Of a DNA stretch of 64,000 bases, positions 18,726 through 52,000 are shown one piece after another; position 1 is the first letter of the stretch, and every line of letters begins with the position of its first letter. The notes below the pieces were generated by a model. The model did no database searches and was not told the origin of the DNA. It saw only the letters and a program-made list of their open reading frames with translations. Source of the stretch: a phage; the NCBI GenBank assembly GCA_025677605.1, contig GCA_025677605.1_4110.1; one strand, 5' to 3'. The position numbers and the translations under genes were made by a program.

Positions 18726-19454
18726 TTAGAAGTAAATCATACCAAGTAATTCAGAATCGTCTGGTCTGTTATAATCTTGCTTCTTAACTTTGAAGTAGAA
18801 AGACTCATGTTCTTCTAAATTATATCTCTTTTTAAGGCAACGTGTGTAAGTCTGACAGTTCGGATGTACCCATTCATAAATGTGTACACCATTCTCATCA
18901 TAACCATTTACACTACAACGATTGCCTTCGTGCTTTTTGTAGTTTTTACTCTTTTCAGTAAATTCACGAGCACATGTGGTATGAGGCTTTTTATAATCAA
19001 AAGGTACTTCAGTTATACGGAAATAATAGAAAAATTCGTCTTCATCATATCCCAAGAGCACTGTGTTAGTTTCACGTACATTGTAATGATTCTTACTTTT
19101 TGCTTCATTTTCGTATATATCTTTCAGTACTTCATCAAATACTACATCACTTGCAGCATTCGGGTTTGACACACCTGATACACGGCGTTCAATAATAAAA
19201 TCGGTAAACTTACGTTCTTCTTCAATATCGCCGTTCATATACAGACTAACAAACTTATCCTTGTATGTTTTGACTGAATATTGTTTACCTTGCACTTCAC
19301 TGTATACATCAGCTAGTAAATTCTCTTGTCCGCATTGGACACCACTTACTGAATATGCAGTTGCATGTTCTGCCATTACGGATGTTAGCATTTGGAAATT
19401 TGCAATGTTTAATTGGTTTGCTAACTCGCTGGCAAATCTGATACGGTCAATCAC
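18726..19454 (-). CDS. hypothetical protein (242 aa), GTG start
   Basis: The start codon reads GTG with AAGGAG 8 nt upstream. No motif recognised. Confidence 0.6.
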   Translation of the reverse strand: MIDRIRFASELANQLNIANFQMLTSVMAEHATAYSVSGVQCGQENLLADVYSEVQGKQYSVKTYKDKFVSLYMNGDIEEERKFTDFIIERRVSGVSNPNAASDVVFDEVLKDIYENEAKSKNHYNVRETNTVLLGYDEDEFFYYFRITEVPFDYKKPHTTCAREFTEKSKNYKKHEGNRCSVNGYDENGVHIYEWVHPNCQTYTRCLKKRYNLEEHESFYFKVKKQDYNRPDDSELLGMIYF

Positions 19455-19512
19455 TCTACACGCTCCTTGTGTTAGTTATTATTCCATACCAACAATTATA
19501 TCACTACTTATA

Positions 19513-19815
19513 CTACTGTCCCGCTTTATAACAATAAAGATTCTCTAATTTGAAGTCCGCAAGGTCACATTCAGAACGTACTCGGTTCTTGTTCCAGTAC
19601 AAAATACGAATCCTTTCATAATCACGATAAACACTAATAATGCTTTTGTGCTTGGATTTATAGTATTCCTGCACAGTCACAAGATACACGGTCCTCAATA
19701 AAGACTTAATGGGATAGGGCATATTCTGTGCTGTAGTAATACTATAAATCATCTTCATTGTTTCAGCAATAAGTACTTCATTTGTTTGATTTGTCATTGA
19801 AATCCTTACATACAC
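19513..19815 (-). CDS. hypothetical protein (100 aa)
   Basis: ORF-track ORF. Confidence 0.5.
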   Translation of the reverse strand: MYVRISMTNQTNEVLIAETMKMIYSITTAQNMPYPIKSLLRTVYLVTVQEYYKSKHKSIISVYRDYERIRILYWNKNRVRSECDLADFKLENLYCYKAGQ

Positions 19816-24956: not shown

Positions 24957-25499
24957 TTATAGACAGTTCTGTAAGATATTATCGAACAGTTTACTGTCCA
25001 GGTTGTACTCATATAAAAATTTAAATCTAGAACCGTACTTCATCATTATATTGAATGCTTCATCTTCTGCTAATACATAGAAGTTGAAGTCATCTACTGT
25101 ACCATTGAACCCAATAAAATCCATAATTTCAATAGTAACATCATGTCCTTGATGGAAGTACTTCACTGACAAAGGAAGTCCAAGAACACTATATTGTCTG
25201 GATTCCCCTTCTAATTTCCCATCTACAACATGGAATTTCCTTGATACTGTATTAGAATTATATCGCTCTTCTCCGTAATGTCCATAGCGAACAGAAAAAA
25301 TTACTGGGTTTTTTGTAGGTCTACAAGTGATTTTTGCTAGTTCTACACCTCCCATGTACTCAACAATATGATTGATAGTTCCTTTTTCTTTTACTATTTT
25401 ATATCCATCAAATGAATCTCTATCAAATTCTTCTAGTACTTCAAATTCTTTTGATTTATAAATGATCTCTGTTGTTTTGTTCTTTGAAAATACAGGCAT
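24957..25499 (-). CDS. hypothetical protein (180 aa); possible MORN-variant repeats
   Basis: ORF-track ORF. FHVVDGKLEGESRQYSVLGLPLSVKYFHQG loosely resembles YwqK/MORN_2-type repeats (weak). Confidence 0.55.
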   Translation of the reverse strand: MPVFSKNKTTEIIYKSKEFEVLEEFDRDSFDGYKIVKEKGTINHIVEYMGGVELAKITCRPTKNPVIFSVRYGHYGEERYNSNTVSRKFHVVDGKLEGESRQYSVLGLPLSVKYFHQGHDVTIEIMDFIGFNGTVDDFNFYVLAEDEAFNIMMKYGSRFKFLYEYNLDSKLFDNILQNCL

Positions 25500-26138
25500 T
25501 ATTATTCCTTTTTAGGAAACATCAAATAATGTACTCGATGTTGATTTCGTTTGCACTCAATCAACATCAGTAGAATTAATTCATCGCTACGCTCTGAATA
25601 ATTCTAATAGTACTAAATGGTTTTAATTAATATTGACGAGGTTTGGAAGAGCATATTTCATCCCCCCACTGGGGGAAAGAATTAAAATTTGACGCTGGTG
25701 GTCTTCACATATTTCATATCACGAATTCTCTTAACGAGGCGAAAGCGGGTTGCTCTGTTTCTCTCTATCGCGGTTCTTGTAGCAACGGTCGTCGGTCTTA
25801 AACATCCCGACACATAATACGAGTACCATATGAACAGTACTGGTATTTGATTTCACCAAATTTTGGACGCAACTATCTTGTACAAATAGTTGACCGCAAT
25901 TTCTAATGAAATCTCCCTTAGCAAATCTGGTAAGGTGCGATCCTTATATGTCTATCTAGGAACTCTCTGTGTGCTTATCGGAGTTCTTTATACAGCCGCA
26001 TTGCCGTGAGGGGTTCATAATATGCCCACATCTGACGGGTTTCATCTGCTGTTCGTACTGAAAGGACTACTCATCTACCCTCTACATTTTCGAGTGGATT
26101 AGGCTCTTAATCATTTCCATATGGAACCTTTCAGGATT
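25500..26138. ncRNA. ORF-free, locally GC-rich block: candidate structured non-coding RNA (class unknown, strand unresolved)
   Basis: No ORF of 60 aa or more in any frame across about 640 nt, in an otherwise saturated coding region. Hand-counted 60-nt blocks at 25741-25800 and 25981-26040 are about 50% G+C, against much lower flanks. It is bounded at 26139-26172 by a strong terminator. Several stable hairpins are present: 25537-25568 (10-bp stem), 25661-25676 (CCCCC/GGGGG), 25870-25892 (7 bp) and 25948-25988 (about 9 bp). Confidence 0.35.
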
Positions 26139-26172
26139 AAAAAAAAAGAGTGACAAAGATATATTGCCACTC
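26139..26172 (-). terminator. intrinsic terminator after 26193..27032
   Basis: Minus strand reads GAGTGGCAA-TATATCT-TTGTCACTC (9-bp stem, one G.U) followed by a run of 9 T. Confidence 0.8.
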
Positions 26173-26192
26173 ATCATTATATCACCAAGAAT

Positions 26193-27032
26193 TTATTTGT
26201 CCTGGGTATTTTCAGTAAATTTCTTCCACAGTAGTAATGTATTTTGACGAATTATTTCAATATGTCTTGAACTAAATTGTCTTTCATTATCGTCCCATAG
26301 TGCATCTGAATTCAAAAATGCCAGAAATACAAATGCAACATCTTCTCGTGGGACATTGAATACTGTATTGTTCGTACATACACGATCCATTGGTACAGGC
26401 ATACCACCAGTACGATCACTGTACTGTAAGTCACGTGCCACCAGATTTACATCTTTGACGAATTTATGATTGATATAAGGCTTCAGAACGTTAAGGAAGT
26501 CATTATATCCATTATTGTGGTCAATTTCAAACATTACATGTTCAGTATTGTCCGCGTCTTCACAGTCGTTATTATTGCTATTTTTGAAATCAAAAAACCT
26601 TTCACTCATTCTACTGGAGTTTGAAGATGAACAATTACGTATACCACCAGAACGGCGTTTAATATTTTCTAAATCTTCATCAGTACTGGAATAATAAGTA
26701 AGATCATATGAATCATTACCAATCATAATACGCTTAGTATAATGGTTATAAACTATAAAGTCATAATCTTTAATACCAAGTAACATGAACTGGAATACTA
26801 ATTCATCCGGTACATCAACGAGTGCATGTTCAAAGTCTTCATATCTGGAACGGAATACAACATCCTTAAATCCACGGTAGATAATAAAATTACCAAAGTC
26901 GAAATAATTTTCATGCATATGGACATTTTCATTTCTGATGTATTCAGACGAAGCTGGTGCAACACGGTCATCTTCTGATGCGTAATGATCGGTTTCTTTA
27001 ACATTAAAGTTGATAATAAAATTTAATTTCAT
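26193..27032 (-). CDS. hypothetical protein (279 aa)
   Basis: ORF-track ORF flanked by terminators on both sides. No motif recognised. Confidence 0.6.
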   Translation of the reverse strand: MKLNFIINFNVKETDHYASEDDRVAPASSEYIRNENVHMHENYFDFGNFIIYRGFKDVVFRSRYEDFEHALVDVPDELVFQFMLLGIKDYDFIVYNHYTKRIMIGNDSYDLTYYSSTDEDLENIKRRSGGIRNCSSSNSSRMSERFFDFKNSNNNDCEDADNTEHVMFEIDHNNGYNDFLNVLKPYINHKFVKDVNLVARDLQYSDRTGGMPVPMDRVCTNNTVFNVPREDVAFVFLAFLNSDALWDDNERQFSSRHIEIIRQNTLLLWKKFTENTQDK

Positions 27033-27086: not shown

Positions 27087-27395
27087 TTAGTTTGAGGTTC
27101 CCCAGCAGTAGACTGGTTTCAAATTCTCAAGAGGATTAACTTCAGGTTTCAGTACTGTAACGCGAACTTCATAAGTACTTCCATCTGCACGAGTCATTGT
27201 TTCATAATGAATACTTTCAATGAACGTTTCATATTCTTCTTGTGAACGAGCACGAACTGCTGAAGAGTATTTCTTCTTAGTATCCGATTTTAAGGTAACA
27301 CTTACGAGTTCTGCTTCTTCGCCATTTTCAAGCTTGTTGAAATCAAACTCTGGTACACCTTCAAACATATCAAATTTCATTCCGTTGTCTTCCAT
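27087..27395 (-). CDS. hypothetical protein (102 aa)
   Basis: ORF-track ORF. Confidence 0.6.
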   Translation of the reverse strand: MEDNGMKFDMFEGVPEFDFNKLENGEEAELVSVTLKSDTKKKYSSAVRARSQEEYETFIESIHYETMTRADGSTYEVRVTVLKPEVNPLENLKPVYCWGTSN

Positions 27396-50577: not shown

Positions 50578-50578
50578 T

Positions 50579-50749
50579 TCAACCCCTGTGAAGTGTCTTG
50601 ATATATTCTCTGTACGCCATGTGAATATTAGCTATATACAATTCTATACCGTACTTGTCATTTGTAATACAGTTCTTGTGTTGGATATCATTAACAAAAC
50701 GACGAATAACTGCATTCATTAATGATTCCATTTGTTCTTTTTTAAGCAT
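50579..50749 (-). CDS. small ORF (56 aa) filling the gap after the triplet
   Basis: Hand-translated: MLKKEQMESLMNAVIRRFVNDIQHKNCITNDKYGIELYIANIHMAYREYIKTLHRG. Its ATG shares one nucleotide with the upstream TGA. Its last codons (LHRG-stop) and the following junction repeat those of 50095..50577. Confidence 0.45.
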   Translation of the reverse strand: MLKKEQMESLMNAVIRRFVNDIQHKNCITNDKYGIELYIANIHMAYREYIKTLHRG

Positions 50750-51787: not shown

Positions 51788-52000
51788 AATAACCTCTACT
51801 ATAATTAATAAGGTAAACTACAATATAAGGAGCACGTTCGGCGGCGGGGTATTTTTTTGTTTAAGGAAACATGAACTGTACTCTGAAAAACACAATATAA
51901 AATTTTATATTAAACATATACCTTAACATGTTTTTCAGCGAAAATTTTTTTGACCCCCCAAAACGCCCCCAAAAACAAGCCTATATTTATCATTTTAAAA

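Follow-up and report, generated by a model that had tools for sequence, protein, structure and literature searches.

Within a 64,000-nt window of phage DNA, one interval stands out by its lack of ORFs. The longest stretch free of any ORF of at least 60 codons in all six frames spans positions 25500 to 26192 (693 nt); the runners-up measure 213 and 171 nt. A sequence-only reading had described this interval as the only long ORF-free stretch of the window, which is borne out, and as a GC-rich island, which is so to a modest degree: in 200-nt windows, the GC fraction is 0.39 to 0.435 across 25600 to 26100 and 0.29 to 0.35 in the flanks, rather than 50% overall. The same reading had proposed a large structured RNA of unknown class. 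The analysis below identifies the island as a promoter-driven structured noncoding RNA gene and not a 3′ UTR, a pseudogene, or an intron. Matches with nhmmer and covariance models, the alignment, and structure counts place the gene, approximately 0.5 kb long, on the minus strand between approximately 25630 and approximately 26170.

Conservation and copy number in Rak2-like jumbo phages

The DNA of the element is 87% identical to its counterpart in 121Q-type phages, whereas identity falls to 33% and 45% for the two flanking proteins; between the element and its counterparts in other genera it is 66 to 74%. Purifying selection on the element is thus much stronger than on the neighboring protein genes. 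In blastn searches, every Rak2-like genome checked contained three to five matching places, and more distant members of the Rak2-like group have related copies. A full reading of one genome gave exactly four copies, all in one orientation, at 18, 128, 208, and 262 kb of 352 kb. These copies belong to old paralogue lineages common to several genomes, and paralogues differ mainly in their peripheral hairpins. Neither blastn nor a covariance model found a second copy in the 64-kb window. The earlier proposal of a structured RNA holds, with the corrections that the RNA lies on the minus strand and that the copy in the window is one of a multicopy family.

We give almost no credence to the idea that the island is a decayed protein gene, or the remnant of an intron or mobile element tied to nearby HNH endonuclease genes, as the sequence-only reading had entertained for intron, mobile-element, or ribozyme remnants. 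HNH endonuclease genes do lie 1 to 3 kb away, and some annotators have called short ORFs over the region. The element is, however, far better conserved than the flanking genes, and compensatory base-pair changes run throughout it. No long ORF is found in any of the family members compared, and none is common to them. Mean conservation by codon phase is 0.750, 0.780, and 0.749, and the spectral power at period 3 ranks 65th of 282, so the third-position variation of a coding gene or pseudogene is not seen; nor do relatives carry an intact gene at this place. Around the four copies of one genome, the neighboring genes are unrelated and the flanking ORFs complete, and each copy has its own promoter, which leaves the link to an endonuclease gene without support. 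Insertion into a host gene with continuous exons and no promoter of its own, as expected of a group I intron, is not what is seen, and no group I or group II model matches. Paralogous neighbor genes that might encode a protein partner were also not found around the four copies. The short ORFs annotated over the element in some records are spurious small "hypothetical proteins."

Covariation defines a fold with four pseudoknots

Structure was counted on 40 diverse copies over 94 base pairs in 18 helices, including four pseudoknots. Overall, 93.9% of these pairs are formed, compared with 74.5% in shuffled controls and at most 42% in slid controls, and none of 500 shuffles attained the observed values. 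Both sides change in 71 of the 94 pairs, and nearly all of the highest-ranked covarying column pairs are Watson–Crick. The nested part of the 3′ domain was also scored on 60 distinct copies, among them copies from islands and divergent ones, and 97.5% of pairs were formed. Single-sequence folding was not significant (z = −1.55 for the minus strand and −1.09 for the plus strand); it is thus conservation and covariation, and not folding energy, that speak for structure. The covariation, which had been suggested as a check, is very strong. We conclude that the RNA has at least 18 helices and four pseudoknots, whose pairs are maintained by compensatory changes, and probably a fifth long-range contact between two loops.

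All features are given on the minus strand, from 5′ to 3′ along the RNA. The 5′ strand of pseudoknot PK1, CUGAAAGG (26127–26134), pairs with 26058 to 26065, and seven of its eight pairs change on both sides; CUGAAAGG/CCUUUCAG in the window copy is replaced by CUGAUUGA/UCAAUCAG in other copies. It is followed by the leader hairpin La (UUCC-AUAU-GGAA, 26115–26126; 4/4 pairs changing on both sides) and by hairpin K (26075–26102; 7/8), which has two bulges and the conserved loop GAAAAUGUA. Directly after hairpin K, conserved alignment columns form a near-invariant GAUGAG (26075–26070). Hairpin J (GUA/UAC, 26055–26070) is 100% paired with two of three pairs covarying, and its loop, 26058 to 26065, supplies the 3′ strand of PK1.

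Helix H (26052–48 with 25996–92; span 25992–26052) is paired in all copies, and both sides change in three of its five pairs. It encloses a variable hairpin as well as helix I (26038–35 with 26007–04), which is likewise 100% paired and has one of four pairs changing on both sides; the interrupted helix noted earlier at 26003 to 26038 is this helix I. Across helix H, PK3 joins AUG (26001–25999) to CAU (25950–25948) in 100% of copies (span 25948–26001); its pair 25999–25950 is G-C in 31 copies and A-U in nine, and ranks high in a G-test. Hairpin G (25960–65 with 25981–86; span 25960–25986), in which all six pairs change on both sides, corresponds to the stem previously placed at 25948 to 25988. 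Its loop probably kisses the loop at 25918 to 25928, through AGCA/UGCU in the window copy. At matching positions, the copies have the complementary pairs AUCGUU/AACGAU, UACAU/AUGUA, AUACC/GGUAU, and AGCA/UGCU, and a self-versus-cross test of the predicted contact is weakly positive (4.26 against 3.89). Within 25916 to 25946, hairpin F (25946–43 with 25934–31) and a C-C/G-G clamp, F2 (25930–29 with 25917–16), are counted helices of the 40-copy structure, and alignment columns place the invariant UAAGGGAG after them. The variable domain V (25849–25913) is closed by 25913–11 with 25851–49, all three pairs of which change on both sides. This domain is missing or different in many copies, and the 7-bp stem seen earlier at 25870 to 25892 falls within it.

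The 3′ domain (25713–25847) is pseudoknotted and comprises seven counted helices, in the order L, PK2, E, N, B, P, and C. Hairpin L (25847–36 with 25827–16) presents a loop that forms PK2 (25834–28 with 25719–13), which is 99.6% paired with all seven pairs covarying. Hairpin E (25813–25788) precedes pseudoknot N (25786–82 with 25753–49), helix B (25772–68 with 25724–20), helix P (25765–61 with 25745–41), and hairpin C (25738–36 with 25730–28). At this domain, the covariance model R1 scores 113 bits on the window copy. The GC-GAAA-GC tetraloop formerly proposed at 25738 to 25745 was read on the wrong strand: on the RNA, CUUUC (25745–41) pairs with GAGAG (25765–61). We likewise rejected "GCGAAAGC" as a GNRA tetraloop, its A/G change covarying with a distant U/C as helix P of the minus strand.

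Beyond the 3′ domain, the tail contains two short direct repeats flanking a hairpin. Box 2, CCACCAGCGUCAA (25689–25701), repeats box 1, CAAACCUCGUCAA (25633–25645), with which the conserved part of the element ends. Where one box differs between copies, the other has the identical change at the corresponding position, and in a divergent subfamily both boxes are altered. A search inside the RNA for segments complementary to the variable positions of the boxes found none. We also considered a pairing between box 1 and GAUGAG and rejected it, since no compensation is seen where GAUGAG varies in the alignment. The C/G hairpin of the tail (CCCCC-AGU-GGGGGG, 25655–25681) is kept in all copies, including island and divergent ones, and contains the stem identified before at 25661 to 25676.

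Transcription signals and strand

A phage-type promoter precedes the element on the minus strand. Its −35-like hexamer AGGACA (26198–26203), which overlaps the end of the upstream gene 26193..27032, is separated by a 16-nt spacer from the TATAAT of an extended −10 element, TGaTATAAT (26176–26184), giving 10 of 12 matches and the TG. The −10 element is conserved as TGnTATAAT among copies, the hexamer varies as GGGACA, GGAACA, GAGACA, or TGAAACG in other copies, and the two elements stand at equal spacing upstream of most copies. By a manual count, approximately 37 of 44 anchorable copies have an exact TGnTATAAT at most 130 nt upstream on the RNA strand, against a chance expectation that we calculate at approximately 0.01 per copy. 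The TGAAACG/TATA promoter class is known in phages CBB and GAP32, and in the CBB paper it is tied to DNA-synthesis genes (PMC5259590). The region has a promoter of its own, and the earlier statement that it is not simply the 3′ UTR of 26193..27032 is upheld.

Between promoter and fold lies a hairpin followed by U9 (26139–26172), with a 9-bp stem (26172–26148) and then a T-run. This is the strong minus-strand terminator reported before; it serves the upstream gene as an intrinsic terminator, and its sequence is predicted to form the first ~30 nt of the RNA as well. Contrary to what had been supposed, the region is not sealed off, because the consensus extended −10 promoter sits immediately upstream of the terminator. 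From the promoter, the 5′ start of the RNA is predicted near 26169 to 26171; the RNA would thus begin at or inside the terminator hairpin instead of being cut off by it. The order of promoter, hairpin with U-run, and RNA is kept in the paralogue group of the window copy.

As read from promoter, terminators, and an excess of G·U over A·C in the supported helices, the strand is the minus strand, codirectional with the flanking genes, and we hold with high confidence that the island contains a structured RNA gene on that strand. In minus sense, the supported helices contain 186 G·U and 63 A·C, and the excess comes mostly from helices B, P, L, and E. Since G·U is tolerated, selection acts on RNA and not on DNA hairpins. 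A functional RNA on the plus strand, antisense to the flanks, with the TTGACG boxes as −35 elements or CUGACGAG as a hammerhead-like core, is very improbable. RNAalifold energies are about equal on both strands, and GAUAG or GGUGG can form 5 bp with the invariant CUAUC that are all canonical in plus sense only. Yet helices B and P and the C/G hairpin would then contain A·C mismatches, and the near-universal TGnTATAAT promoter and the terminators are on the minus strand. No conserved −10 element follows the TTGACG boxes, which read CTGACG in about half of the copies; CUGACGAG has neither a hammerhead stem II nor a GAAA and no Rfam match. Both assignments were therefore rejected together with the plus-strand reading.

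The 5′ end of the gene is thus predicted from the promoter. In about half of the copies, a hairpin followed by U6 or U7 on the minus strand forms an intrinsic terminator inside the element, and the 3′ tail is conserved past this internal terminator. In the window copy, a terminator scan found no canonical terminator 3′ of the RNA, and nothing halts read-through into gene 24957..25499. A genuine 10-bp hairpin at 25537 to 25568, included in the structured region by the sequence-only reading, lies outside the conserved family core, between the element and the next gene, which starts at 25499. It has a shorter form in the 121Q-type orthologue and is not called as a terminator in the window copy; it may be the 3′-end structure of this copy, which has no internal terminator.

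These arrangements bear on whether the element is a cis-regulatory leader, such as a giant riboswitch, an attenuator, or a processive antiterminator, with the internal terminator as its expression platform. Three of the four copies in one genome are upstream of, and codirectional with, the next gene; about half of all copies have a terminator after the folded core, and the window copy proceeds without a stop before gene 24957..25499. We nevertheless consider a leader improbable. The genes downstream of paralogues are unrelated, so that the element keeps no constant position before a functionally related set of genes, and no known leader is as large or has as many pseudoknots. Island copies run head-on to a cI-like repressor gene, and one paralogue ends against a convergent baseplate gene, with nothing to regulate; because that paralogue sits between convergent genes, the element cannot be a leader there.

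Related copies in enterobacterial islands

Single related copies are also found in integrated islands of approximately 10 to 11 kb in the chromosomes of Enterobacterales (Klebsiella, Enterobacter, Serratia, and Escherichia coli). The islands contain an integrase, the RNA, cI/cro, and defense cargo such as Kiwa, with the element and the cI-like repressor gene oriented toward each other. Their copies are preceded by a −10 element of the form TGnnCTATACT or TGaTATAAT. The RNA element and the promoter type are all that the islands share with Rak2-like phages: island proteins of 286, 233, and 250 aa had no tblastn match in 50,697 phage genomes, comparison with PHROGs returned nothing beyond cro-like and cI-like regulators, and no recognizable replication gene was found in the islands.

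What the RNA may do

Our favored reading, to which we give an even chance, is an abundant trans-acting RNA or RNA–protein complex. Judging from the sequence signals, the transcript, its ends, and its abundance in this phage group are inferred as follows. Host sigma-70 RNA polymerase would transcribe the RNA in large amounts from early to mid infection, probably with the aid of a phage factor recognizing the TGAAACG-like −35 element. The RNA would fold into two compact pseudoknotted domains, whose invariant junction nucleotides would form a binding or catalytic surface, and the stable product would work in trans, in all likelihood bound to a phage protein or assembled into an RNA multimer. Toward the 3′ end, the C/G hairpin and the pair of CGUCA(G/A) boxes would be recognition or processing signals for a common factor. 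The following observations sit uneasily with this reading. The RNA of the window copy is predicted to start at a hairpin with U9 that resembles a terminator, and no canonical terminator follows downstream. In other copies, conservation of the tail beyond the internal terminator suits a role at the DNA level or in cis no less well. The islands have nothing else in common with the phages, and their possession of the element is simpler to explain if it is needed in cis.

Such a cis-acting, replicon-linked element could be a replication origin that fires through a structured primer or R-loop RNA. The phage would then have several dispersed origins, and the islands would carry one for amplification by the T4-like replisome of the jumbo phage. 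We regard this as unlikely, though it is the main rival to our reading. It would account for the dispersal of the copies at 18, 128, 208, and 262 kb in a single orientation, for a promoter class linked to DNA synthesis in CBB (PMC5259590), and for islands that lack a recognizable replication gene and share just the element and promoter type with the phages. The tail, with its G5–6/C5–6 hairpin, two covarying direct repeats, and AT-rich DNA, conserved past the terminator, is also as expected. Against an origin, no known origin RNA needs anything near the structure seen here, with its four pseudoknots and many invariant nucleotides at junctions, an efficient-looking terminator stands upstream of the G-run in half of the copies, and tolerance of G·U points to selection on RNA rather than on DNA hairpins. 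Cumulative GC skew in OR844650.1 has no extremum at three of four copies and a strand switch near one; this test is weak, because skew in that genome follows gene orientation.

Tentatively, and with less than even confidence, we suggest that the RNA may be a component without which no replicon can exploit the machinery of Rak2-like phages, and the only one so required, and that the islands may be the first satellites, or RNA-decoy defense elements, of virulent jumbo phages. In one form of this proposal, the component would be an RNA-built origin or another cis-acting "license"; in another, it would be a catalytic or scaffold RNA that islands have copied to hijack or jam the phage. In either case, the phage-type promoter before the shared RNA would switch the islands on. 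New RNA classes of such size and complexity are rare, and RNAs of comparable length (~0.5 kb), number of pseudoknots (four or more), and wealth of invariant junction nucleotides have in the past proved to be ribozymes, RNA–protein cores, or unexpected assemblies. The RNA is a hallmark of a whole jumbo phage clade that is being developed for therapy, and several old paralogues are kept per genome. A multicopy hallmark RNA that is shared with islands therefore offers a direct experimental handle on two questions, namely, how Rak2-like phages organize early to mid infection or replication, and whether jumbo phages have satellites or RNA-level antagonists.

Comparison with known RNAs

The RNA belongs to an uncatalogued family. 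Rfam 15 returned no matches in the whole 64-kb window at gathering thresholds, and in E-value mode, 25300 to 26300 and 12 other members gave chance-level matches only, of at most 25 bits. The unmatched families include group I and II introns, RNase P, tmRNA, GOLLD, ROOL, OLE, HEARO, 6S, and riboswitches. ARAGORN found no tRNA or tmRNA gene in the window, and the literature searched contained no description of the RNA. The earlier failure to match tRNA, tmRNA, RNase P, or group I and II cores agrees with these results. Covariation, the promoter, and the absence of an Rfam match together give strong support to the proposal of a large structured RNA of unknown class. A likeness of ACAGAGCAACCCGCUUUCG to conserved regions of RNase P was dropped for want of support from any model and because its pairing partners are different. 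Pseudoknots are present in the 3′ domain, but their order does not seem to follow the group I scheme with its P3–P7 core.

Among RNAs of replication origins, ColE1 RNA II is a folded primer of approximately 550 nt in which a G-run nucleates the hybrid, and T4 oriF and oriG combine a middle promoter with an R-loop. The present element resembles the former as a promoter-driven RNA of approximately 0.5 kb whose fold matters and which has a G-run near its 3′ part, and the latter in its several dispersed copies, T4-like replisome, and middle-type promoter. However, neither ColE1 RNA II nor the oriF and oriG RNAs are known to have multiple pseudoknots or comparable sequence invariance, and half of the present copies differ from origin primers in having a terminator before the G-run.

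The immunity RNAs of P4 (CI RNA, seqA/seqC) and P1/P7 (c4 RNA) are approximately 70 to 80 nt long and act by pairing with repeated boxes. As a lead only, these systems are called to mind by the place of the RNA gene in the islands, next to integrase and repressor genes, and by the short direct-repeat boxes that change in concert; the present RNA is six times larger and occurs in virulent phages as well.

PA5oct, a related Pseudomonas jumbo phage, expresses four ORF-free noncoding RNAs of 236 to 619 nt defined by RNA-Seq, two of which take approximately 5% of phage reads each (PMC7318152). Their number and size match the present family, but PA5oct ncRNA002 and ncRNA004 have no nhmmer or covariance-model similarity to it.

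Nearest in kind are the large "ornate" RNAs ROOL and GOLLD, with which OLE and raiA are grouped. ROOL and GOLLD measure several hundred nucleotides, have many helices and pseudoknots with highly conserved junctions, and are stand-alone genes, often in phages or prophages, with no known function (PMC12286853). The present element is similarly large, multipseudoknotted, stand-alone, and in phage DNA, a likeness of kind and not homology. Homo-oligomeric RNA cages are the defining structural finding for ROOL and GOLLD. The present RNA differs from both in being multicopy in each genome, with old divergent paralogues that do not lie beside tRNA genes, and in having a conserved 3′ tail with repeated boxes and a second home in small integrated islands.

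Results

The window shares 99.7% identity with Escherichia phage A4, an Asteriusvirus (Rak2-like group) jumbo phage of 355 kb, and the annotated neighbors of the RNA gene lie on the minus strand throughout. The nearest two, 24957..25499 and 26193..27032, match no Pfam family. The interval between them (25500–26192, 693 nt) is, as the sequence-only reading had proposed, the longest region of the window without an ORF of at least 60 aa in any of the six frames; the next-longest such stretches are 51788–52000 (213 nt) and 50578–50748 (171 nt), for which whole-window scans gave neither an Rfam nor a tRNA match. That reading had also called the island GC-rich: its GC content is higher than that of its surroundings (0.39–0.435 versus 0.29–0.35), but the contrast is modest. 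The minus-strand terminator that it placed at 26172–26139 is real. Two small genes 1 to 3 kb from the element, 27087–27395 (A4_402) and the more distant A4_397, are putative HNH endonucleases according to the A4 annotation; the former had no Pfam match at E ≤ 0.01, and HNH-annotated small genes are not associated with other copies of the RNA.

By blastn, the RNA region is ∼87% identical in 121Q/PBECO4-type phages, and its core (∼25624–26114) is 66 to 74% identical in every other Rak2-like genus examined, with three to five matching places per record. The records with the core include Yersinia fHe-Yen9-04, Salmonella 7t3 and Munch, Serratia BF, Erwinia phages, Cronobacter GAP32, Pectobacterium CBB, and Xanthomonas XbC2 and XaC1. 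At the orthologous locus of 121Q-type phages, the two flanking proteins share only 33% and 45% identity with those of the window; thus, the noncoding stretch is conserved far better than the surrounding genes, and the element is under strong selection. No coding signal was detected (there is neither codon periodicity nor an ORF common to the copies), and a pseudogene or intron remnant is an unlikely reading of the region. Several deposited genomes have two to five short "hypothetical proteins" placed over the RNA gene, 28 to 52 aa long in MK773491.1 (7t3) and PQ464595.1 (Kaldavass); these calls are almost certainly spurious.

The complete, unannotated Asteriusvirus genome OR844650.1 carries exactly four copies in one shared orientation, at 18.3, 128.3, 208.1, and 261.5 kb. 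A covariance model confirmed these four and found exactly one copy in the window. Unrelated genes flank the four copies, among them one for a sigma-70-like protein, a DUF7325 gene, and a zinc-finger/DUF2726 gene that stands opposite a baseplate gene. With pattern scans of IMG/VR and metagenomes, the set grew to 65 distinct copies of full length, 47 of which are mutually <95% identical (median pairwise identity, 64%). Copies from one genome fall into separate clusters, each common to other genomes, which indicates that the paralogues are old.

We aligned 40 copies in RNA orientation with MAFFT (alignment A1), derived helices from RNAalifold, a G-test covariation scan, and inspection, and then counted pairs on A1. 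The fold comprises 94 pairs in 18 helices, four of them pseudoknots. Standard pairs occupy 93.9% of cells, compared with 74.5% in shuffled alignments and 36 to 42% when the 3′ partner was slid by one to three columns. Changes on both sides were seen in 71 of 94 pairs (shuffled, 53.0; slid, 28–35) and in 710 cells (shuffled, 212; slid, 84–133), and the covariation score was 0.505 (shuffled, 0.171; slid, about 0.08). None of 500 shuffles attained the observed value by any measure, although shuffling disregards kinship among the sequences, a limit that applies to all of these pairing statistics. Given the slid controls and the large number of pairs that occur as three or four pair types, chance is a very unlikely source of the pairing. 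Covariance model R1, built on the 3′ domain, scored 89 to 130 bits on all 62 copies searched. In the R1-based alignment of 60 distinct rows, which is fitted to the model and hence biased toward it, pairing in the nested helices reached 97.5%, and 19 of 25 pairs had changed on both sides.

On the minus strand, the promoter and start are followed by a 5′ domain (26134–25916), a variable domain V (25913–25849), and a 3′ domain (25847–25713). PK1 joins the leader to the loop of hairpin J (26134–27 with 26065–58), PK2 engages the loop of hairpin L (25834–28 with 25719–13; covariation at all seven pairs, with pairing in 99.6% of cells), and the remaining pseudoknots are PK3 (26001–25999 with 25950–48) and N (25786–82 with 25753–49). 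A fifth contact is likely, a kissing interaction between the loop of hairpin G and the one that precedes UAAGGGAG; its pairs vary by lineage (AUCGUU/AACGAU, UACAU/AUGUA, AUACC/GGUAU, and AGCA/UGCU), and a self-versus-cross test was only weakly positive. Unpaired stretches that are invariant or nearly so in A1 are GAUGAG, CAAUGCGG, AUAAAG, GAUAGACAUAUAAGG, UAAGGGAG, GACCGUUGC, and AGAAACAG..CAACCCGCUU. Depending on the copy, a mini-domain of ∼35 nt (GUACAA...CCGUCCAAAAUUUG-like) is found at either of two insertion points, domain V in the window (25849–25913) or an insertion in hairpin C in loci L030, L012, L071, and L020 (A1 columns ∼615–650), as a movable module on the periphery of the fold would be.

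The RNA is encoded on the minus strand, as three independent lines of evidence agree: promoter, terminators, and wobble pairs. A consensus extended −10 element, TGnTATAAT, lies on this strand 57 to 105 nt upstream of the conserved core in about 37 of 44 anchorable copies by our count, the remainder having mostly TATAAT or TATACT, and a −35-like GGGACA, GGAACA, GAGACA, or TGAAACG is found 16 to 17 nt further upstream. The region's best promoter-like site is that of the window copy, at 26203–26176 (AGGACA, a 16-nt spacer, and TATAAT with a preceding TG). In about half of the copies, the folded core is directly followed on the minus strand by a hairpin and U6–7. Within helices supported by compensatory changes, 186 G·U pairs read in the minus orientation stand against 63 A·C, which would be G·U on the plus strand. 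Helix B exchanges G-C for G·U in 12 copies, and at the center of helix P (GAGAG/CUUUC), 28 of 40 copies have G·U and the others A-U. That G·U is tolerated on just one of the strands is also evidence against a DNA cruciform. A plus-strand RNA, from which RNAalifold energy does not discriminate the minus-strand one, is unlikely.

In the window copy, the −10 element (26181–26176) follows the stop codon of 26193..27032 and precedes the terminator hairpin of this gene (region 26139–26184). The predicted RNA start is near 26170, at the foot of this hairpin with its U9, which also terminates the upstream gene. Because the −10 precedes the hairpin, transcripts would start with a terminator-like hairpin and U9, which could act as an attenuator or 5′ stabilizer; the order promoter, hairpin with U9, RNA is conserved within the paralogue group of this copy. 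The window copy has neither an internal terminator nor a canonical one ahead of the next gene. The promoters of the RNA copies match exactly a class described as "divergent RpoD-like" in CBB and GAP32 (TGAAACG together with a classic −10), where it is concentrated upstream of DNA-synthesis genes (PMC5259590). The class (−35 TGAAACG/GGGACA-like, 16–17 nt, extended −10) precedes the RNA in Asteriusvirus and in bacterial islands as well. Just upstream of paralogue c18 in OR844650.1 lies a gene (18823–19788 of locus L004) whose sigma-70-like product has Pfam regions 2, 3, and 4; a phage sigma factor could be the reader of the unusual −35.

The conserved tail consists of box 2 (25701–25689), a C/G hairpin (25681–25655), and box 1 (25645–25633), the two boxes being direct repeats. 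Their variable letters change in step and in the same way, with G/G or A/A at 25689 and 25633 and U/U or C/C at 25698 and 25641. No complementary partner for the variable positions was found anywhere within the RNA, and the boxes may bind a common external ligand or pair alternately with one 5′ strand. In a divergent subfamily of six metagenomic loci, CGAAG replaces CGUCAG in both boxes, and the strand 5′ of box 2 is UUCG in place of GACGA. This subfamily retains the 3′ domain and tail (R1, 92–117 bits) and the same promoter, TGTTATAAT, with a strongly diverged 5′ domain. It is probably carried by distant Rak2-like jumbo phages, since the portal protein of one contig (L067) is 60 to 64% identical to those of Vibrio phage 2.275.O, XaC1, and CBB.

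Unexpectedly, eight full-length homologues (nhmmer, 1e-89 to 1e-108; R1, 100–110 bits) turned up when bacteria were scanned with a single genome for each species. Seven are in Enterobacterales, namely Serratia fonticola (complete chromosome), Serratia sp., Enterobacter chinensis, Silvania, Buttiauxella, and two more; the eighth is on a 2.8-kb contig binned as Clostridium. Each bacterial genome has one copy, in low-GC DNA (about 0.35) adjoining high-GC core genes. The usual order is core genes, integrase, zero to three small ORFs, the RNA, a cI-like S24 repressor gene that the RNA faces, a cro-like gene, a 286-aa protein, LprI, an invertase, cargo, and core genes. Integrases are of the tyrosine (423–432 aa) or large serine (534–703 aa) type and are swappable, and the 286-aa protein is conserved. 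In three Enterobacter-type loci (L123–125), the cargo is the Kiwa defense pair KwaA/KwaB. E. coli LR-29-1 has a related ∼10-kb island beside ffs with different cargo (DUF4326/DUF488/dual-OB) and blank RefSeq annotation over the RNA; among 5426 complete E. coli genomes, just 2 contain a copy. As a family, the islands (for example, L123 3578–14464, L120 1–4800, L122 1–5118, and L126 6959–17303) are low-GC, integrated, and about 10 to 11 kb long with variable cargo, and those of Serratia and E. coli deviate from the usual layout. They look like satellites or defense islands. In the 6 of 10 loci with sufficient upstream sequence, island copies retain a promoter of the phage type (TGAAAC or TGAAATG, ∼16 nt, TATACT or TATAAT). 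Three island proteins had no tblastn match among 50,697 phage genomes, which leaves the RNA and its promoter type as the only shared features found.

Discussion

The element is a promoter-preceded, structurally constrained RNA gene, multicopy in phages and single-copy in islands; the earlier suspicion of a structured RNA was right, and its object exceeds in interest what sequence alone had revealed. Near-consensus promoters and discrete terminators point to the RNA as the product, and the dense tertiary structure with invariant junctions suggests a binding or catalytic core. With confidence evenly divided, we favor an abundant, stable, trans-acting RNA or RNA–protein complex made early to mid infection. 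A leader or riboswitch is unlikely, and a leader role is excluded for one paralogue, which lies between convergent genes. The related Pseudomonas jumbo phage PA5oct has four ncRNAs defined by RNA-seq and described as abundant (PMC7318152), which we count in favor of a trans-acting RNA, although the two compared here, ncRNA002 and ncRNA004, have no detectable relationship to the family. Those two (MK797984.1 21951–22401 and 246116–246734; loci L113 and L114) are GC-rich and ORF-free.

The main rival, which we consider distinctly less probable, is a replicon element that acts in cis, for example an origin whose primer RNA is structured. Dispersal of copies along the genome, the promoter class, and conservation of a G-run and repeat tail past the terminator all fit an origin, most strongly so the islands, which have no recognizable replication genes and would benefit from a phage origin. 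However, the structure far exceeds the needs of any known origin RNA, and the terminator sits ahead of the G-run. The cumulative GC skew of OR844650.1 has no extremum at three of its four copies, a weak test given that skew in this genome tracks gene orientation.

The element is not a member of ROOL, GOLLD, OLE, raiA, or any other Rfam 15 family, none of which matched. Nor did we find a description in the literature, including the CBB, phAPEC6, and PA5oct genome papers and a comparative review of jumbo phages, an incomplete coverage that makes an earlier description possible. These data define a large RNA family that is new, contains multiple pseudoknots, is a marker of Rak2-like jumbo phages, and ties them to small defense-carrying islands. 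It is alike in kind to the ornate large RNAs ROOL, GOLLD, OLE, and raiA, which are also large, pseudoknotted, phage-associated, and of unknown function. Unlike them, it has old multicopy paralogy and a 3′ box module, and it occurs in integrated islands too.
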